Virus record (IMG/VR): IMGVR_UViG_3300027963_000311
Coordinates: 1-25,446 of that record
Direction: 5' to 3' (one strand)
DNA: 25,446 nt
Source of the DNA: a virus
Taxonomy: Duplodnaviria > Caudoviricetes
Every line of letters starts with the position of its first letter. Position 1 is the first letter of the stretch. Of this stretch, positions 436 through 15,099 are shown piece by piece. The notes beneath the pieces were generated by a model. It had not been told where the DNA came from and ran no database searches. It worked only from the letters and a program-made list of their open reading frames with translations. Both the position numbers and the translations under genes were made by a program.

Positions 436-473
436 ATAAACCCCAATCATGTGTACAGTAGATTGGGGTTTAT
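436..473. repeat. Perfect 13-bp inverted repeat with 12-nt loop
   Basis: ataaaccccaatc (436-448) / gattggggtttat (461-473). Confidence 0.9.
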
Positions 474-4354: not shown

Positions 4355-6210
4355 TATATACCACCTGCTAATATTTGCATGGCATTGAAATCTGCCATGA
4401 TACTTGATTCACTTTGATTTGTATTATACGTGGCTGATAGCTGGTAATAATTCTGCACTGTTGCCTGTGCTGCATTCACCCCACTGCCTAGTGTGGCATT
4501 CATTGCGTTTGTTACGTCTGGCAATCCTGCCATAATGCCTGCTGCCATGCCTTGTGAAATAGGTCTGCCCACAAGATTGGCAAACACCTTTGATGGTGAT
4601 GCAATTCCGAGTAATTTCATGGCCGCATCAAGTGCACCTTGTGCAACCTTTTTGGCGGCATCGGTAATTGCATCGATGCCGTTGCTAATGCCATGTGCAA
4701 TGCCATCTGCAATGCTTTTTCCAACGGCCGTGGCCTGTGAAACAATCGACGATACAAGGCCGCCAATCTTGGCTGATACATCTATCACAAATGTATTGAT
4801 GGCCGTTTGTACTGTAGTAACAAATGTATTAATTGCTGTTTGAATGGTTAACCACGCGCCTGCAAAATCACCTTTTAAGAGTAGGCTAATTGCAGACAAT
4901 GCGCCAATAATCAGTGCCTGCCATGGCGTGATTATTGCCATCATGCCACTAATAACAATCTGAATATATGGCCATAAGAATTGAAACGCCTGCATTAATC
5001 CCTTTACCTGCATTGCCATACCGTTTATTGCCAGTGATACCACGCTAATCAGAATATCTCCCAACAAAATAAATACAGTGACAATGTTTTGTATGTAGCC
5101 TTGTGTTTGTGGTGATGCCAGTTGTTTTGCAATCACATTGTATAGTGCTGACAATGCAGGCTCTGCCACTGCATACAGATTACCAATGGCACTGGTAATT
5201 GGTGCAATGGCTGCCATAAATGAATTAAACCCTGTTTGCAACGATTTCAGTGTATTTTGCCAGTCAATGCCAGATACAAATTTATCTGATGATAAATATA
5301 ATTTATCAATAGCAGATATGATGCCTGGCCAGTCAATTCCAGAAATAAAGTTTGCAAATTGCGTAACTAAATCACCAATGATTGGCACTAATACTTCACT
5401 TGCATAACTTCCAAAACGCACCAGTACTGGCAGCAGTGCCTCGCCTAACGTCTGCTGAATATCTGCAAACTGTGCTGCCAGCACTGCCTGCTGTCCTGCA
5501 TAGGTATCAACAGCAGCAGCAGCACTGCCGCCAAATTCCTTGCCTAGTTCACCTAAAATAACCTGCTGTGCACCAGCCACATTGCCTGTTTCGACCATGG
5601 TTTTAATCATGGCCTTTTGGTCATCAGTAAACGACACACCCACACGCGACAATGCACTAATGCCTGCTATAGGATCGTTCAGGGCCTTACCTACTTGCAG
5701 TGCTGATGATTGCAGATCAGTACCCATGGCCTGTGAAATATCTGCAATAGCTTGCGTGGCATCGCCAAAATTTGCGCCTTTAATTTGCGTGAATGTAGCT
5801 AAAACATTTTCAGCACCTAAAATTGCATCATCAGAAAAAATGCTATTGCCACTGCTGGCACTCATGGCACCAGCCATATCTGCCATTTGCTTTGCAGTGA
5901 GGCCAGCTGCCATGCCAGTGGATTTCACCACTGCTTCAGTCTGTGCAAATATAGATTGGAATTCGCTTGCTTCTACAATGCTGCCTGATATGAAATCAGT
6001 CATCTTTGAAAATGCTGCACCTGCCAGATTAACTGCTGCACCACCAATGGCATGAAATGCACCAGTGGCAATAGATTGCAGCGCGCCAAAACCCTTGCCC
6101 GCTGTTTTGGTGGCACCGCCAACGTTTTCCACGCTGCTCGTAACTGCAGCAGCCACTGGCGTTACATCATCTTCACCTAAGAAACGAATTAGTACAGTGG
6201 TATCACTCAT
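4354..6210 (-). CDS. Tail tape measure protein (618 aa)
   Basis: Long Ala/Ile/Gly-rich helical protein; LGIASPSKVF motif near C-terminus; follows tail assembly chaperones. Confidence 0.93.
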   Translation of the reverse strand: MSDTTVLIRFLGEDDVTPVAAAVTSSVENVGGATKTAGKGFGALQSIATGAFHAIGGAAVNLAGAAFSKMTDFISGSIVEASEFQSIFAQTEAVVKSTGMAAGLTAKQMADMAGAMSASSGNSIFSDDAILGAENVLATFTQIKGANFGDATQAIADISQAMGTDLQSSALQVGKALNDPIAGISALSRVGVSFTDDQKAMIKTMVETGNVAGAQQVILGELGKEFGGSAAAAVDTYAGQQAVLAAQFADIQQTLGEALLPVLVRFGSYASEVLVPIIGDLVTQFANFISGIDWPGIISAIDKLYLSSDKFVSGIDWQNTLKSLQTGFNSFMAAIAPITSAIGNLYAVAEPALSALYNVIAKQLASPQTQGYIQNIVTVFILLGDILISVVSLAINGMAMQVKGLMQAFQFLWPYIQIVISGMMAIITPWQALIIGALSAISLLLKGDFAGAWLTIQTAINTFVTTVQTAINTFVIDVSAKIGGLVSSIVSQATAVGKSIADGIAHGISNGIDAITDAAKKVAQGALDAAMKLLGIASPSKVFANLVGRPISQGMAAGIMAGLPDVTNAMNATLGSGVNAAQATVQNYYQLSATYNTNQSESSIMADFNAMQILAGGI

Positions 6211-6392
6211 TTTTTCTTTGCCTTGTGTTCGTTCACTTCAGATTCAATGGCCATCAGTGCCAGGTGTTCAGAGATGATTTGCCAGTCTGGCAGGTTTGCT
6301 GGTGTGCAGTGATATATATCACGACACAATATCAATTCCAAATATTCAATAGGCATTGGTGCTTTGGTCCATAGGTGTGCACGCAATGCCAT
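6207..6392 (-). CDS. Tail assembly chaperone, C-terminal (gpT-like) segment reached by -1 frameshift
   Basis: In the -1 frame relative to the upstream chaperone; ends overlapping the tape measure start; contains YHCTP..L motif. Confidence 0.75.
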   Translation of the reverse strand: MALRAHLWTKAPMPIEYLELILCRDIYHCTPANLPDWQIISEHLALMAIESEVNEHKAKKK

Positions 6393-6394
6393 TG

Positions 6395-6610
6395 CTATTT
6401 TGGGTTTGTTTCACCTGATACACGACTCACAATAGCACTAATGATTTGCGCCAAATGACTAGCAGGCAAATCTTCAGCCTTGCGGCCGTCATCTACCATT
6501 ACACACTTATTCATGATTGGTAGCAGTGCATCTAAATCATTCCCCTGGCCAGCCTTCACAAGGTTTGCCACATCACGAATAGTTAGTTTACTTGCATCGA
6601 TGCTGTACAT
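6395..6610 (-). CDS. Tail assembly chaperone (gpG-like)
   Basis: Between major tail and tape measure genes; ends in slippery heptamer C CCA AAA then TAG; AGGAG upstream of start. Confidence 0.8.
   Translation of the reverse strand: MYSIDASKLTIRDVANLVKAGQGNDLDALLPIMNKCVMVDDGRKAEDLPASHLAQIISAIVSRVSGETNPK
6398..6404 (-). other. -1 programmed ribosomal frameshift site C CCA AAA
   Basis: X XXY YYZ heptamer in frame just before the stop; -1 frame continues ATA GCA ATG GCA TTG into 6207..6392. Confidence 0.8.
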
Positions 6611-8421: not shown

Positions 8422-9978
8422 CTACGATGCAGGATTCACACCATACACGAATGCTTCAGCCTGCGTCACGTCACCACCCCAACGTACCGTACAGAAAATG
8501 GCAGTCTGATAATTCGCCTGGTACAGGTATGGATTGCGGCTGATTTCCAAACCAAGATTTTCCACAAATGCATAGTAATTGAAGTTACCAAACAAAATGG
8601 CCTTGGCACTGGCCCCCAATGCGGCAATTTTATCAGACACTGCCACCGGTTTGGTATACAGGCTGTTCATATCACCCATAGGGGTTGGTTGGAAGCTAAA
8701 GAAATTGCCAGTGAGTGCACGAATGGCCCCAAGCGTGGTGTTACGCATTACCCAACCAACGCTGCTGGTATCGTCTGCATACCATTCAGGCAATTTGTGT
8801 ACGATGTTGAGAATATCGCTAGCGTCAACACCAGATACACTAGCCAACGTTTCCGAAACAGTGGCACGTGCCAAAATACCATAAGGTTGTGACGATCCCG
8901 TACCAACCAATTGATAGTTATTCAAGTGGCGTGCATATGCGCGTCCTACTTCGCGTGCAATGAATCCTTCAAGGTCCATGGCTTGATCACGCAACAATTG
9001 ATTTGAAATCTTCATACCCAATGATGCAGTGTAGATGGTGATGGCACTGCCAGCAAAGGTTGGTTCATCTTCGTTGAATGCACTCGATTCAGCAACAAAT
9101 GCAAAATCCGATTTTTCATCTTGATTTGCAATGTTGAAGATTTGGCCACTGGTGGTGTAGCGTTGCATAGGAAGCTTGGCACCAATCCAGGTTTCGTCAC
9201 GGCGATCCGTAATTTGTTTGGCATAGTCTTGTGGCACTAAGAAACCACCGTTTGCATTGGTGCCTTCTACTAATACGGCCTTGGCAGCGATTTCGTCACC
9301 AGTACGCATCCAGTGTTTAAGTGCATCCATTTGGTCATTGCTGTTACCCATGGTGGTAAGCTTTTTGGTAGCTGGTGCATTGCCTGCAATAACGCCACCA
9401 CCTTTTACAGGTTCGCCTGCCATTTCTTCGATGGCGGCCTTCACTGCATCCTTAATGATTTGGTCTGACATGGTTGTAGATTCCTTTGATGTAAGTGTGT
9501 GTATATTGCTACTGGTATTTGCAGGGCCGCTGTTGCCAGCCTGTGGCACTGCCTTCATATCAGAAATAGCCATGGTTCGTGGTTCTGCTGGTGTAGGGGT
9601 TAAACTAATTTCTCCTACAATCCAGCGTTTCAATTCGCCACCATCACGCACCACCAAATGTGATAGTGCACCTGTAGATAATCCTAGCACACCACGTTTT
9701 ACCAGTGCCATCACCTGCTGTGCATATTTGTGGCGTTTGTCAATTTCAATATCAACATCGATGCCTTCGCTATCAGGCTGCCACATCTTCACCGTGCCAA
9801 TTTGTGACTGCAAATCTGATAGGCCGTGATCATAATACACTGGCATGCCAACGAATGATCGTGTATCACCAAAATCTGTTTGTGCAGTGAATCGATCCCC
9901 CGTTAAATCTTTGCCACCAAACACCACGCCACGGCCGCGTACCACATATTCTGATATTTGTTTGACTGCATACTTCAT
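8422..9978 (-). CDS. Fused HK97-type prohead protease + major capsid protein
   Basis: N-terminal ~145 aa with YYDHG, GLSTG and EISLTPTPAEPRT protease motifs; C-terminal GGFLVP, FVAE, GTGSSQPYGIL, ILFGNF capsid motifs; no stop between them. Confidence 0.93.
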   Translation of the reverse strand: MKYAVKQISEYVVRGRGVVFGGKDLTGDRFTAQTDFGDTRSFVGMPVYYDHGLSDLQSQIGTVKMWQPDSEGIDVDIEIDKRHKYAQQVMALVKRGVLGLSTGALSHLVVRDGGELKRWIVGEISLTPTPAEPRTMAISDMKAVPQAGNSGPANTSSNIHTLTSKESTTMSDQIIKDAVKAAIEEMAGEPVKGGGVIAGNAPATKKLTTMGNSNDQMDALKHWMRTGDEIAAKAVLVEGTNANGGFLVPQDYAKQITDRRDETWIGAKLPMQRYTTSGQIFNIANQDEKSDFAFVAESSAFNEDEPTFAGSAITIYTASLGMKISNQLLRDQAMDLEGFIAREVGRAYARHLNNYQLVGTGSSQPYGILARATVSETLASVSGVDASDILNIVHKLPEWYADDTSSVGWVMRNTTLGAIRALTGNFFSFQPTPMGDMNSLYTKPVAVSDKIAALGASAKAILFGNFNYYAFVENLGLEISRNPYLYQANYQTAIFCTVRWGGDVTQAEAFVYGVNPAS

Positions 9979-11306
9979 TGATTCATTCCAATCAGCTGGC
10001 GTGCAAAATCTCGCACTGATTTGGCCATCTCATCACGCCATGCCTGTGGCAGTGCTGCAACAAAATCTGGTCCTTTGCGTTTGGCCAGTGCAATTAGTTT
10101 TGCCTTAAATTCCTCAAACGTTACATCACCTTTATAACGGCCCCATGTTGACACTGCTGCTGGCACATCATCTGGTGTAACAATTGGGAAGTTTCGTGTA
10201 TCAGGTAATACAAAATCACCTGCTGGCATTGCTTCGCGTTCTTTTGGCGTGGCGTTGCGATCAGCAGCAGTGCGAATGGCCATCATTGCATCAGGTTCGT
10301 ATTCGTACATTTGCATGCCAACAGGTTCTGCTGATTCCTGCATTGGTGTTTCTGCCAGCTCTTGTACATCCATTGGTTCTGCCATCATTACAGCACGCAA
10401 TTGCCAGCGTAATTTTTGATGGTACATTAAACGGTCCTGCAAGAAGTTTTGCACGCCATATTGCATCACTTCACCAGCCATCATGATTCCACCATTGATG
10501 CAGTCAATGATGTACAGGTTATCCATGCTAATGCTGGCAATGAGTACATCTAGTGAATCATCAGCAGTGGTGGTATCGATTGGTTGGTGCATGGCTAATT
10601 GAAACAACGTTGCTGGTGCCTTGTAATCGAGTGCACGCAATGTTTCGGCAATGCCATCAATCGCATCATCAAGTGCTTCATAGATTTGTTCAAAAAATGC
10701 ATGGTATTGTGGAAAATCTTCACCTTCCACATTCCAGTGTGCAGCGTGTGTTTTGTATTGCAAAAATACCGTATTGGCTAATACTTTGCATACTTCCATG
10801 GCCAAATCATCTTGTGTGGCTTTTACTGCCTTCATTGGCACTGCTGGCACCATTCCCATCATTGGTGATGGATTTGGCATACCATCATCACCCAATGCCA
10901 CCATGTGATTTACCAAATCTTGTGCAGTTTTGCGTGCAGTGCGAATGATTTTCATATCCGCTTCAGAGTGTCTGCTACCTGCTTTTACTTCCATCTTGTT
11001 TATCTCCTTCAAAATCGATTGCACCCAATCCCTGCCTGCATCGCCACCCCAACCATGCCATGCCTGCCAGCCACGGCCCTGATCATTCCATGTGCTGCCT
11101 TGTTTATCCACTGCATGGCGTGCAAAATAACTTGCCATGCGCTGTACTGTGTCGAGTGATACAGGTTCCCTATTCGCCAATTGCCGTGCACGTGCCAACC
11201 CAACCAACGTCATGCCACGTGCACTTGCAGGTTTTGATTCGCGTACATCAAGTGCCATCTGTGCATTGCGTGCCACGTCTGCTGGTGGTCTGTACGTATC
11301 TGCCAT
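9975..11306 (-). CDS. Multidomain head-region protein containing a Dps (ferritin-like) domain
   Basis: ATG 11306 with AAGGA SD. N-terminal phage head-associated domain (GLARARQLAN...RMASYFARH...WGGDAGRDW), KAGSRHS segment, central Dps domain, C-terminal ER..MP.GDFVLP..R.FPI domain (DUF6582-like). Stop overlaps capsid ATG (ATGA). Confidence 0.88.
   Translation of the reverse strand: MADTYRPPADVARNAQMALDVRESKPASARGMTLVGLARARQLANREPVSLDTVQRMASYFARHAVDKQGSTWNDQGRGWQAWHGWGGDAGRDWVQSILKEINKMEVKAGSRHSEADMKIIRTARKTAQDLVNHMVALGDDGMPNPSPMMGMVPAVPMKAVKATQDDLAMEVCKVLANTVFLQYKTHAAHWNVEGEDFPQYHAFFEQIYEALDDAIDGIAETLRALDYKAPATLFQLAMHQPIDTTTADDSLDVLIASISMDNLYIIDCINGGIMMAGEVMQYGVQNFLQDRLMYHQKLRWQLRAVMMAEPMDVQELAETPMQESAEPVGMQMYEYEPDAMMAIRTAADRNATPKEREAMPAGDFVLPDTRNFPIVTPDDVPAAVSTWGRYKGDVTFEEFKAKLIALAKRKGPDFVAALPQAWRDEMAKSVRDFARQLIGMNQ
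10390..10811 (-). other. dps: Dps / mini-ferritin domain
   Basis: KTHAAHWNVEGEDFPQYHAFFEQIYE...IDGIAETLRAL...HQKLRWQLRA; H192, H204, E208, D219, E223 (track numbering) have the spacing of the Dps ferroxidase ligands (Listeria H31, H43, D47, D58, E62). Confidence 0.92.
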
Positions 11307-11330
11307 GTGCAATCCTTTGCTAGTGTAGCA

Positions 11331-11798: not shown

Positions 11799-13859
11799 CT
11801 ATTCACCTGGCCCTATGATTGGTGATTCCACCAACACTAACGCAATAGCACACCTGCAATTTACGTGTGCTGGTGGCCCTGCAGTCACTTCTACTGGCCA
11901 TTGTGCCTGCAGTAATCCATCATAATCTTTGCAGTCATCACAGATGGTTGTGTCATTTTCTGCAATCCAGATCATAGTGGTATTGATGCCAGCCTGCAGT
12001 GCCTGATTCTGAATGGCAAACGTTTGCTGTGCTGCAGCTCGTGTGGGTTCAGTGAATGCAATGCGTTGTGCACGCAAATCACCAAACATGGCTAATTGAT
12101 TGCGAATATCATCAACGGTAATGCCAACCGTGGTTTGTGCGTTGGTAATTACACTGCTGATGTAATCACGTTCAGTGGCTGATAGGTCCTGCAGGAAGGG
12201 TTGCCAGTAACTATCAATATAGGTATTCGCCTGATTGGCAATGCCTTGTTTGATAATCTCATCTCCTACAACATCAGCCATGCCAGGTATGGTGCGAATG
12301 CGTTCTGCACCTGCATCTAATACCAGCTGTGCCACATTGTCTGTAAGCACGTCACGCAAATCCGTGTCAATGGCTGTATAGTCACCATTGGCAATTGCTT
12401 CTGCATTCTTATCACTCCGCGCTGCTAACTTCTTGGCTATGGCGTCGTACACCTTGCGTTCAGCTGGTGTGAGATCAGCCAATGTGAGTGCCTTTATAAA
12501 GTGAAACACGTGACCTATATCACTCTTTTTTTTTACGCCTTTTAGTTCTGCATAGATAAAATCAGTCATGTATCGTGGCAGTGTATCTGATTCAAACGTG
12601 GCAGCAGCATTGCCTTTTTGTTTGTAGCGTTTCACGACCTTGCGTTCGTATGCTTCCAAGTCTGCAAGTCTACTGGCCTGTACTGCTTTTACATCAGTGA
12701 GTGATTCATCAACAATTTCTGCACCTGTATCAACGTTGATACCAGTCACATCAGGGCCAGTGGTGGTAGGTGGCACGCCAATTGCCTCATCAATGTTGTC
12801 ATAGCCTAGAATTTTCATGGCACTGCCAAGTGGTATGCCAGCCTGTACCAACTGCAGTAGGCTGCCAGCTCGTTGTGCTTCGTCTGTTTGAAATACGTCT
12901 AACGTTTCAGGAGTGAAATGCATTTTGTATTTGAGTGGTGCAAATACCTGTTGATTTAGTACACGTTGATAAAATGCCAACCGTGGCACAATGGTTTCAC
13001 GCCAAAATGATTGGCGATCACTATCAGCCGTGGCATAGTTCGCTGCACTTGCTTCTAGCATGGTACGTGGCACGCCAAACGTGGTAGTAATGTTGGTAGT
13101 AACGCGTTCTTGCAGTGGTACAAGTTCCATATCTTTTAACGGAAAGGTAAGAATTTGGGTTTTAACATCGCCACGAAAAAAGAAGGTTTTGAATGCATTC
13201 GAAACATTCTCTACACGTGACCGCCAATCAGATTTAAGCCGTTCATATTCTGGTGGCGTAATGGATTTGTCTAGACTCATGATTACTGCAGGCTGTGCAC
13301 CATGTTCAAAAAATGCACTGGTAAACCGTTCCAGATAATACGCAAGCTGTGCAGATTGCAGTGCTACACCTGCTGGTGCAATGCCGCCGTATACATCATC
13401 TCTAATCGATGGTTCGCGCCAGTACACAATTTCATCAATAGTCCAAGGCCCGTATATCTTGCCATTGATGTTTTGGCTAAATCGAATCCCCGTCATTACG
13501 TTGTCTGATGTTTGCAATTCAGGTTTGTATTCAACCTGTACTGATTTAGGATTCAAGAATTGAAACCCGTACAATACACGGCCACGATATAAGCGCAACC
13601 AAAATGCAGTGCCAGTTAGGAGTAGTGCACGTTCTGTTTGCTGAATCAGTGAATCCATTGGCGTGGCAAATGGATAATCAACGTTCACATCATTGCGTTC
13701 CAGTACAAATGGCACGGTGCCTAGCGCGTCTGATCGCAAATTGATAGCACGGTATAGCATTGGCACTTTTTCGTATGCATCAATGGTGCCGTATAATTCG
13801 CCAGCCTTCTTGGCAACACTGTACCAACCTGGTATGGCCTCGATCGCTTTATAAGTCAT
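11799..13859 (-). CDS. Portal protein fused to a C-terminal MuF / SPP1 gp7-like head morphogenesis domain
   Basis: HK97-type portal motifs (LLLTGTAF, YGGIAP, FFEHGAQP, FGVP..L, NYATA, FWRETIVP); C-terminal RAQRIAFTE..RA, W....D...C..C, PPAHVNCRC MuF signature. Confidence 0.92.
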   Translation of the reverse strand: MTYKAIEAIPGWYSVAKKAGELYGTIDAYEKVPMLYRAINLRSDALGTVPFVLERNDVNVDYPFATPMDSLIQQTERALLLTGTAFWLRLYRGRVLYGFQFLNPKSVQVEYKPELQTSDNVMTGIRFSQNINGKIYGPWTIDEIVYWREPSIRDDVYGGIAPAGVALQSAQLAYYLERFTSAFFEHGAQPAVIMSLDKSITPPEYERLKSDWRSRVENVSNAFKTFFFRGDVKTQILTFPLKDMELVPLQERVTTNITTTFGVPRTMLEASAANYATADSDRQSFWRETIVPRLAFYQRVLNQQVFAPLKYKMHFTPETLDVFQTDEAQRAGSLLQLVQAGIPLGSAMKILGYDNIDEAIGVPPTTTGPDVTGINVDTGAEIVDESLTDVKAVQASRLADLEAYERKVVKRYKQKGNAAATFESDTLPRYMTDFIYAELKGVKKKSDIGHVFHFIKALTLADLTPAERKVYDAIAKKLAARSDKNAEAIANGDYTAIDTDLRDVLTDNVAQLVLDAGAERIRTIPGMADVVGDEIIKQGIANQANTYIDSYWQPFLQDLSATERDYISSVITNAQTTVGITVDDIRNQLAMFGDLRAQRIAFTEPTRAAAQQTFAIQNQALQAGINTTMIWIAENDTTICDDCKDYDGLLQAQWPVEVTAGPPAHVNCRCAIALVLVESPIIGPGE
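12520..12534 (-). other. A9 run / A AAA AAG slippery site followed by -1 frame stop (GAG TGA)
   Basis: GGC GTA AAA AAA AAG AGT GAT at portal codons ~441-447; -1 frame stops at 12522-12520, +1 frame stops a few codons later (GTG ATA TAG). Confidence 0.65.
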
Positions 13860-13881: not shown

Positions 13882-15099
13882 TTACATAAAATCATACATT
13901 ACGCTACCATCGCCTAACATGGCATTGGCACCACTCACTGCATCCACCATATCATCATGGCTGCCATACGGGAATGCCACAGACTCATCAATGAATTGCT
14001 GGCACCATTCGCCACGCACCACGCGAATCATATTCTGTTCAGCTCGAGCGGCCCATGGCATAGCGCGATGCATCTTATCCTTTGTGACGTGATAGCCAAC
14101 CAACGTAACGTGTGCTAATTCCTGCATGCGTCGCAATTCCTGCAGGCCTGCCAAACCATGCAGTGCTTCCTCAACACCTTGCGTGGTATCGTCTGCTTCT
14201 GATCGCATTACATCGATCATAATCTTGCGTACATCTGGCCATTCAGCCTTGATGCGTATGCCATCAGCAATGTACATGATGCCATCATCTGCCATAGCCA
14301 CACGCACACTAGCAGTATAGTCTGCACTATCTCGCACACTGGTGGCCAAATCCCAATAACGATACCACTGCAGGTTTGGTGGTGGTGCGTCTACTAACGT
14401 AAACCACTGACGTTTGAACAGTGCACCAGACAAATCAACAAACTGGCCGTTTGCTTCCTGTTCAAACTGTTCACTCGTATAACTTGTGCGTAACGTGTGG
14501 ATAAATGAATCGGGCAAAAATACATTGTCTGTGGTTTTGCTATGTATCACTGCATAATCAGGATTACTGCTGCCATGCCACAAATCGTATATCCAATTAC
14601 GGCCGCGTGGCGTGGTAGTAATCCATGCCTTGCCTGGCATTTCGCGCAACGTGGCAATGGCAATCTGCCACGCATCGATGTGCATCATGGCTGCTTCGTC
14701 AAACCATATCCAACCAAGATTGGCACCACGCAAGCGATCAGGATTGTCTGCACTCCTTAGCAATATTGTTCTGTTGCCATGCAGCACAATAGTGCCTGTG
14801 CTGATGTTATGCGTTTTAAGTATGCCAGCAGGCCGTGCAATATCTAATAACATCTTGCGTGGTCCATCACGTAGCATTGGGTATGTTGGCGCAACGATCA
14901 TGCCAGTGCTATTTGGTGGCATGCGTAGCACTTCGATTACACCAGCTCTTGTCTTGCCACTGCCACGGCCCCCAATAAAGGCCCGAAACCGTGCTGTGCT
15001 ATTCCAAAACATCTCCTGTGGTTTCGTACACTCGCTGTGGCGTAACGTCCTGTATTGTATTTGCGTTGTTGATGATTGCTGGTACACGTGGCGTGCCAA
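13882..15099 (-). CDS. terL: Terminase large subunit
   Basis: Walker A GGRGSGKT, LRGANLGWIWFDEAA, TTTPRG.NW, nuclease WDLA and FPYGSHDDMVDA. Exact start uncertain. Confidence 0.95.
   Translation of the reverse strand: MARHVYQQSSTTQIQYRTLRHSECTKPQEMFWNSTARFRAFIGGRGSGKTRAGVIEVLRMPPNSTGMIVAPTYPMLRDGPRKMLLDIARPAGILKTHNISTGTIVLHGNRTILLRSADNPDRLRGANLGWIWFDEAAMMHIDAWQIAIATLREMPGKAWITTTPRGRNWIYDLWHGSSNPDYAVIHSKTTDNVFLPDSFIHTLRTSYTSEQFEQEANGQFVDLSGALFKRQWFTLVDAPPPNLQWYRYWDLATSVRDSADYTASVRVAMADDGIMYIADGIRIKAEWPDVRKIMIDVMRSEADDTTQGVEEALHGLAGLQELRRMQELAHVTLVGYHVTKDKMHRAMPWAARAEQNMIRVVRGEWCQQFIDESVAFPYGSHDDMVDAVSGANAMLGDGSVMYDFM

Follow-up and report, generated by a model that had tools for sequence, protein, structure and literature searches.

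Gene content and organisation

The window analysed here (the whole stretch of DNA, 25,446 nucleotides) is a 25-kb contig of a tailed phage, and its minus strand carries a terminase gene, a portal-MuF gene, a 155-aa ORF, a ferritin-like ORF, a protease-capsid fusion and the tail genes (Table 1). An HK97-like portal domain and a MuF1 domain are located in one ORF after the terminase, both of them with Pfam scores above the cut-off, and the same ORF matches TIGR01537 and TIGR01641, in both cases below their cut-offs. As in the MuF/SPP1 gp7 family described in the accessible parts of PMC5576092, PMC6316719 and PMC7302621, the MuF1 domain comes directly after the portal. The ORF ends 14 residues past the Pfam MuF domain and has no C-terminal extension there; the polymorphic toxins of the MuF type were rejected as a model for the window, given that a C-terminal toxin domain is lacking.

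Table 1. Features of the window and of related loci discussed in the text. Positions are those of the window unless a locus is named.
Feature	Position	Strand	Remarks
Large terminase, directly upstream of the portal-MuF ORF	13882..15099	-	
Fused portal-MuF ORF, 686 aa (76.4 kDa)	11799..13859	-	PHROG 2662 spans residues 66-675
HK97-like portal domain, residues 36-342	12834..13754	-	Pfam PF04860, 122.7 bits, cut-off 39.1
Codons 405-407 (GAA CGC AAG), equivalent of the second slippery site	12639..12647	-	No run in the window
Predicted small helical connector domain, about residues 386-457	12489..12704	-	AlphaFold2, block pLDDT about 70-87
A9 run, last base of Val442 through Lys445, predicted slip site	12526..12534	-	
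A AAA AAG heptamer in -1 frameshift phase	12525..12531	-	Confined to the window's sub-clade, 15/38
TGA in the -1 frame (one A added), end of the predicted 446-aa product	12520..12522	-	Same position in 34/38
TAG in the +1 frame (one A lost), end of the predicted 447-aa product	12515..12517	-	From Ile448 ATA
Lys456-Ala457, candidate maturation-protease cut between portal and MuF	12489..12494	-	K-A motif
MuF (Phage_Mu_F) domain, residues 578-672	11844..12128	-	Pfam PF04233, 36.8 bits, cut-off 29.6
Prohead protease-major capsid fusion, one ORF	8422..9978	-	
Mirror layout junctions	L140:3524-3597; L141:3689-3762		

Between the two domains, the AlphaFold2 model contains a low-confidence linker (361-391) followed by the connector helices 386-415, 429-439 and 445-457. 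Over the portal the model is poor (mean pLDDT 53.7), and it becomes fair from residue 390 onward; because of this unreliability over the portal, the fold search adds just generic portal and minor-capsid matches. A similar connector stretch was recognised by eye inside the portal ORF of two unfused distant relatives, L172 (ORF 126-1943) and P0136.

Related to the rest of the head module, the protease-capsid ORF has K-A motifs at 142, 180 and 233 that may mark maturation cuts. Besides, a 445-aa ORF (9975-11312, minus strand) combines an N-terminal domain of PHROG 2859 (function unassigned) with a ferritin/Dps-like domain, and several K-A motifs in it could be protease sites.

The A9 run in the window

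Codons 442-447 of the 686-aa ORF read GTA AAA AAA AAG AGT GAT (minus strand, 12536-12519) and include a run of nine A's, which is the longest homopolymer of the window. The first-pass annotation had pointed out this run in the ORF, together with a -1 stop (GAG TGA) at about 446 aa and an early stop in the +1 frame, and each of these elements is found as described. The addition of one A gives a product of 446 aa ending in VKKKE, the loss of one A gives a product of 447 aa ending in VKKRVI, and two A's more or fewer also lead to an immediate stop (448 and 445 aa). The masses computed for the shortened and complete proteins, 50.4 and 76.4 kDa, agree with the ~50 and ~76 kDa that had been expected. 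The site had also been placed between the portal and the MuF part. This is correct, but it lies about 100 residues past the end of the Pfam portal domain, in the predicted loop that precedes the last connector helix (445-457), so the short product would consist of the portal and most of the connector, with the last predicted helix lost.

In the window alone the A9 site is weak evidence, because synonymous resampling of the window's own codons produced a run of at least nine in 39% of the trials (the run together with both stops in 2.6%). It is the conservation of the site, and not its presence in a single sequence, that exceeds chance.

Conservation in the close relatives

Three scans yielded 72 loci, 50 of which cover the site at 58% identity or more, and in all 50 (37/37 and 13/13) Lys-Lys-Lys is encoded on an unbroken A run. 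Of these loci L054, which is the window itself, was left out; the remaining 49 and the window correspond to 38 distinct sequences, which share 58-100% identity and form four sub-clades whose fourfold sites differ by 0.52-0.77. The conservation of the run in relatives had been proposed earlier as a test, and the run is never broken in these 38 sequences: it consists of nine A's in 15, ten in 20 and eleven in three of them. At the protein level, the Lys triplet is kept in 66/66 hits with at least 54% identity (the window's own protein and one near copy included) and is absent from 54/54 hits with 40-45% identity.

Lys443 and Lys444 are encoded by AAA in all 38 sequences, whereas the 12 other conserved Lys columns outside the site all mix AAA and AAG. 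On the codon tree, codons 442-447 have undergone 5 synonymous changes against 27.2 expected. For codons 442-446, 4 third-position changes were counted against 28.4 expected (36 sequences), with a Poisson p of 1.5e-8 that is the lowest of about 655 windows along the gene, the next best window elsewhere reaching 1.9e-4. Parsimony and Poisson counts of this kind are rough, but the peak of constraint is sharp and centred on the site, and no stretch of the gene is under stronger synonymous constraint than codons 442-446.

The conserved feature is the length of the run and not the heptamer, which occurs in only 15 of the 38 sequences. These 15 form the window's sub-clade, and all of them use AAG at codon 445 and GTA at codon 442; single-codon use is found in just 4 of the 33 invariant Val columns of the sub-clade. 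When codon 442 ends in T, the three Lys codons are AAA AAA AAA and the following codon starts with A (7/7 such sequences).

Concerning the stops, the -1 frame closes within four codons in 38/38 sequences (a single codon on in 34, four codons on in the other 4), and in the 34 sequences with the stop after one codon six different codons occupy position 446, all of them ending in T. The +1 frame closes within three codons in 37/38, L032 having lost the near stop (13 codons), and the ATA codon of Ile448 is kept in 15/15 of the window's sub-clade. The background median distances to a stop are 5-11 and 7-16 codons. Nevertheless, the probability of a near stop given the amino acids is 0.18-0.70 for the -1 frame and 0.08-0.99 for the +1 frame; the stops are thus partly dictated by the protein sequence and, taken alone, constitute modest evidence.

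One ENA protein of 445 aa (P0064) ends exactly at KAKKK, the sole case among 66 clade proteins, and this is the end expected if an A11 run loses one A. It may be a real variant, an assembly error or a contig end.

A second site and a site-less branch in distant relatives

Two further scans (72 loci; best 80 of 89) together with the earlier ones provided 78 distinct fused loci of 28-47% identity, after removal of duplicates, of ORFs with fewer than 300 codons and of loci that do not cover the region. The A9 site of the window is absent from all 78. About 38 codons upstream, 66 of them carry A AAA AAA in -1 phase (A7-A9), two (L095 and L115) have the Lys pair without the run, and ten have neither site. 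The codon that precedes the Lys pair at this sister site has changed its amino acid 11 times over the tree, and its last base is A in every one of those 66 loci. The sister site has 0 changes against 31.2 expected, partly by construction since the 66 loci were chosen for carrying the run, and the fair figure is a run in 66 of the 68 loci with the Lys pair. The -1 frame closes within 16 codons in 66/66.

The 60 nt that follow the sister site rank first of 91 windows for predicted folding (mean z -1.94, the others -0.15 plus or minus 0.36; 14 loci). RNAalifold applied to all 51 distinct sister segments gave no single consensus, because two groups of sequences pair in different registers; one hand-written structure for all 51 segments reached 67.8% of paired positions. 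Two clean consensus folds were obtained from 17 and 17 of the 51 segments, the groups being hand-picked by register, and in each group a long predicted stem starts 4-5 nt after the heptamer. One of the groups displays only pair-preserving one-sided changes and a single break, and the other displays two both-sided changes, each of them probably one event. By these features the sister site looks like a classical ribosomal -1 signal, and its short product would be the portal with almost none of the connector. In L151, an in-frame deletion of about 21 residues (codons ~417-440) lies just after the sister site; the hairpin region is gone and an A8 run is kept.

The loci L041-L052 (fused, 42-45% identity) constitute a branch without a slippery run at either site, and no constrained window was detected in the ten site-less sequences, a comparison of low power (tree length 1.27). 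The existence of ten fused relatives without a site means that recoding is not universal, and the full fusion apparently can do without it.

In L172 (126-2758), located on a Chloroflexota MAG contig, the distant portal is unfused; it has a connector of the same kind and a tail rich in Pro/Val, and in the -1 frame it shares 16 nt with the start of an independent MuF ORF. A distant unfused portal matched one Chloroflexota MAG contig at 39%, which is too remote to name a host and gives no more than a weak host hint. No relative of the portal-MuF fusion was found in the genome collection, and the cultured phages gave 75 weak portal matches, none of which covers 80% of the fusion.

The mirror layout

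Two genomes, L140 and L141, have one A fewer at the sister site. In them the portal (405 and 408 aa) ends in frame at A AAA AAA TAG, and it is the -1 frame that goes on into the conserved KKIERRIK segment and the MuF domain. The predicted hairpin is kept in both (z -4.2 and -3.2). In L141 there is an AAGGAG 14 nt upstream of the site, and the first start codon in the new frame comes about 28 codons after it; in L140, the MuF part could start independently, judging from an ATG located five codons before the Lys pair.

The MuF sequences of L140 and L141 form one clade (89% identical, support 0.989) and are 53-65% identical to the others, and the portal of L140 is 99% identical to that of the fused L119, from which it differs by one A at the sister site. 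That a MuF clade of their own unites the two mirror genomes suggests that the layout is inherited, with this shared MuF clade placed on recombined portals. The split of the L140 type is also present in protein records from a 5,637-nt contig and from a Logan contig; a fragment in ENA stops at the Lys pair of the sister site. When viral contigs were scanned by pattern for further mirror genomes, the L140 and L141 contigs were the only ones to come up.

Proposed mechanism and its alternatives

The core idea of the first-pass annotation, a selected recoding site that gives a short portal beside the fusion, stands well with a run kept in 38/38 sequences and with a sister lineage that has its own site and a mirror layout; considering all mechanisms together, such a site is very likely. 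The reading preferred here, with a probability of roughly 0.6, is that the A9 run is conserved under selection as a programmed slip site, mainly transcriptional, which provides short and long subunits. The host RNA polymerase would add or drop an A on part of the late mRNAs. The slipped mRNAs would terminate within three codons and yield a ~50-kDa portal of 446-448 aa, and the unslipped ones would yield the 76-kDa, 686-aa portal-MuF fusion. Short and long subunits would then co-assemble into a mixed 12-mer, and fewer than 12 MuF domains (with the cargo extension where present) would enter the head. We infer the slippage, its rate, its mainly transcriptional nature and the mixed 12-mer from the sequences.

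Several published rates bear on the choice of mechanism. According to the accessible text of PMC4066793, the best unstimulated V_VVA_AAG heptamers shift at about 0.3% in E. coli, 3.7% at most. Slippage is efficient on runs of nine A or T, and the nine-A run of Thermus dnaX, with stops in both non-zero frames, serves to make its two products at 1:1 (PMC5009743, in the part available); in reporter cassettes, slippage was 63% with 11 A's, 40% with 9 and 10% with 7 (PMC3711429, likewise in part). Ribosome sliding produced robust truncation at A11 and little at A9/A10 in the accessible portion of PMC4363877. Around the A9 site, no SD-like stimulator upstream is consistent across 11 clade loci (the best anti-SD duplex of the window, -3.7 kcal/mol, abuts the run and is near the background quartile of the gene). 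Downstream, RNAalifold gave 0 consensus pairs for a stem-loop in 34 sequences, and the 60 nt after the window's site rank 16 of 89 windows against synonymous shuffles (14 loci). Polymerase slippage is therefore favoured: there is no conserved stimulator, an unstimulated heptamer would reach about 0.3% compared with 40% for an A9 cassette, and sliding is weak at A9-A10. Ribosomal shifting is its main rival, and both could act. The parallel with Thermus dnaX slippage that had been drawn earlier fits better, with A9-A11 in 38/38 and stops in both frames, than the E. coli dnaX mechanism suggested alongside it, for which a folded RNA downstream had been envisaged.

A programmed -1 ribosomal frameshift of the E. 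coli dnaX type, acting on A AAA AAG (A AAA AAA in other sub-clades) and giving the same 446-aa portal from an unchanged mRNA, is unlikely as the main mechanism. The heptamers are in phase, the T of the -1 TGA is kept through the six codons at 446 in 34/38, and the heptamer (A7-A9) and predicted hairpin of the sister site point to ribosomes there; A_AAA_AAG and A_AAA_AAA represent 72% of the IS heptamers (PMC4066793, accessible text). Nevertheless, AAG is limited to 15/38, seven A's suffice for such a shift and yet 9-11 are always kept, and neither of the stimulators was found at the A9 site.

It is improbable that no second product is programmed, which would mean that the protein needs the Lys triplet and that its codons are fixed by bias, by a pause or by another RNA-level function. 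All the subunits would then be fusions, with MuF released by the prohead protease, a scheme equally improbable. HK97-type proteases cleave after Lys, and the K-A motif that precedes the predicted mature capsid start (233) recurs after the connector as [VIY]KA in 78/78 distant loci and in the window (456-457); Lys456 is invariant in sub-clade A1, and Ala is absent from several clade members. The ten relatives fused without any site are in agreement with this proposal, as is the D/E at 447 that gives the GA of the stop and resembles acidic residues in site-less relatives. Codon bias, however, cannot yield AAA in 38/38 at two columns, because every other Lys column varies, and the compensating A's in the flanks, the second site with its hairpin and the mirror genomes are left unexplained.

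Pausing or sliding of ribosomes on the consecutive Lys codons, with loss of frame both ways and no defined stimulator, is very improbable. Three Lys codons with stops in both frames would suit it, since sliding has been observed with as few as three lysines (PMC4363877, in the part available), and three loci have A11; but 35 of the 38 sequences have A9 or A10, where that source describes little truncation, and the third Lys codon of the window is AAG. The least probable reading is a phase variation at the DNA level, in which replication slippage would toggle whole genomes between portal-only and fusion states: P0064 and the single A that separates L140 from L119 are compatible with it, but 49/49 clade loci are in frame, no indel of the A run was detected in the contigs of 4 of the 24 sequencing runs listed (contigs drop rare variants, and X1 may be the source of the window's own DNA), the shared MuF clade of the mirror genomes suggests an inherited layout, and P0064 itself may come from an assembly error or a contig end.

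MuF dosage and comparison with known systems

Portals are treated as homo-dodecamers and MuF proteins act at low copy number. For this reason the annotated portal-MuF fusions are a puzzle, to which the conserved slip site offers a testable answer: one gene would make both forms. Such fusions have been annotated in the Microbacterium clusters EA3, EA5, EA8 and EB (PMC7302621, accessible text), and in SPP1 the portal binds 1-2 copies of gp7 per capsid, a protein that helps infection (PMC5576092 and PMC6316719, in the parts available). With polymerase slippage of 40-60% and random assembly, MuF would still be present on about 5-7 of the 12 subunits, the rates being borrowed from E. coli and perhaps not those of the phage's host. 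At the published A9 rates (40-50%) about half of the 12 subunits would keep MuF, far above the copy number of SPP1 gp7, and the site would thus lower, not minimise, the MuF load. By the same arithmetic, the mirror layout at a shift of about 10% would give roughly one MuF per ring. It can be tentatively proposed that the family solved the control of MuF load at least twice, by polymerase slippage (A9-A11) and by a hairpin-stimulated -1 frameshift 38 codons upstream, with a default that flips between fusion and free portal.

Among the recoding systems already described, Thermus thermophilus dnaX is the closest: it is a single long ORF with a nine-A run and near stops in both non-zero frames, and its truncated product shares the N-terminus with the full one, as would the short portal, which would likewise join the same ring-shaped complex. 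The differences are that a phage head gene is involved here, that the run length is 9-11 and that slippage is predicted from sequence. E. coli dnaX has A AAA AAG with a -1 stop one codon on, as in the window's sub-clade, but the window's site lacks the SD and the hairpin and its AAG is not conserved across the clade. E. coli dnaX and the reversed, two-ORF dnaX of the Chlorobium type are paralleled by the sister heptamer with its hairpin and by the L140/L141 mirror, respectively (accessible parts of PMC5009743 and PMC3711429 for the dnaX genes). In the tail-chaperone G/GT and SPP1 gp17.1/17.1* pairs, recoding also determines in what proportion a virion or assembly protein is made in its two forms (PMC5009743 and PMC6316719, in part); these extend a short default in tail genes, whereas here a long default of the portal gene is truncated.

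Portal-MuF fusions and recoding in dnaX and phage tail genes are already known. What the present case adds is a single family in which two sites, apparently with different mechanisms, coexist with a mirror state and with a branch that has no site. Recoding at the portal-MuF junction is not mentioned in the accessible text of PMC5576092, PMC7302621, PMC7911831, PMC6316719 and PMC13313380, and no report of it was found in the open literature; the word "portal" is absent from the main texts, as available, of PMC5009743, PMC3711429 and PMC4066793. If the interpretation is true, the portal would be one more of the few phage genes for which programmed recoding is known, the annotation of such genes as having a single product would be wrong, and the story of dnaX in E. 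coli, Thermus and Chlorobium would be replayed in a phage head gene. Besides, the natural series formed by A7 with hairpin, A9, A10, A11, the mirror layout and no site would allow transcriptional and ribosomal slippage to be compared in one protein family.

A protease-like tail follows MuF in many relatives, and the ratio of the two forms may set the cargo delivered per virion; if true, this would be a dose control for a metallopeptidase-like cargo. In detail, 22 of the 37 clade sequences with a readable end carry a post-MuF extension of ~280-340 aa with an HExxH motif, for which there was no Pfam match above the cut-off and no identification by Atlas, and the extension is also found in 3 of the 66 fused distant loci counted and in both mirror loci. 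The loci concerned are L009, L011, L012, L017, L021-L030, L035, L037-L039, L077, L085, L086, L140 and L141. The extension, metallopeptidase-like by its motif, is present or absent even among relatives 88-90% identical to the window.

The tail-chaperone G/GT model was rejected for the A9 site, which is in a different gene, and the window has a G/GT candidate of its own at 6398-6404 (minus strand). It consists of C CCA AAA directly before the TAG of a 71-aa ORF (ORFs 6395-6610 and 6207-6392), from which the -1 frame runs into a 61-aa ORF just upstream of the tape measure gene.
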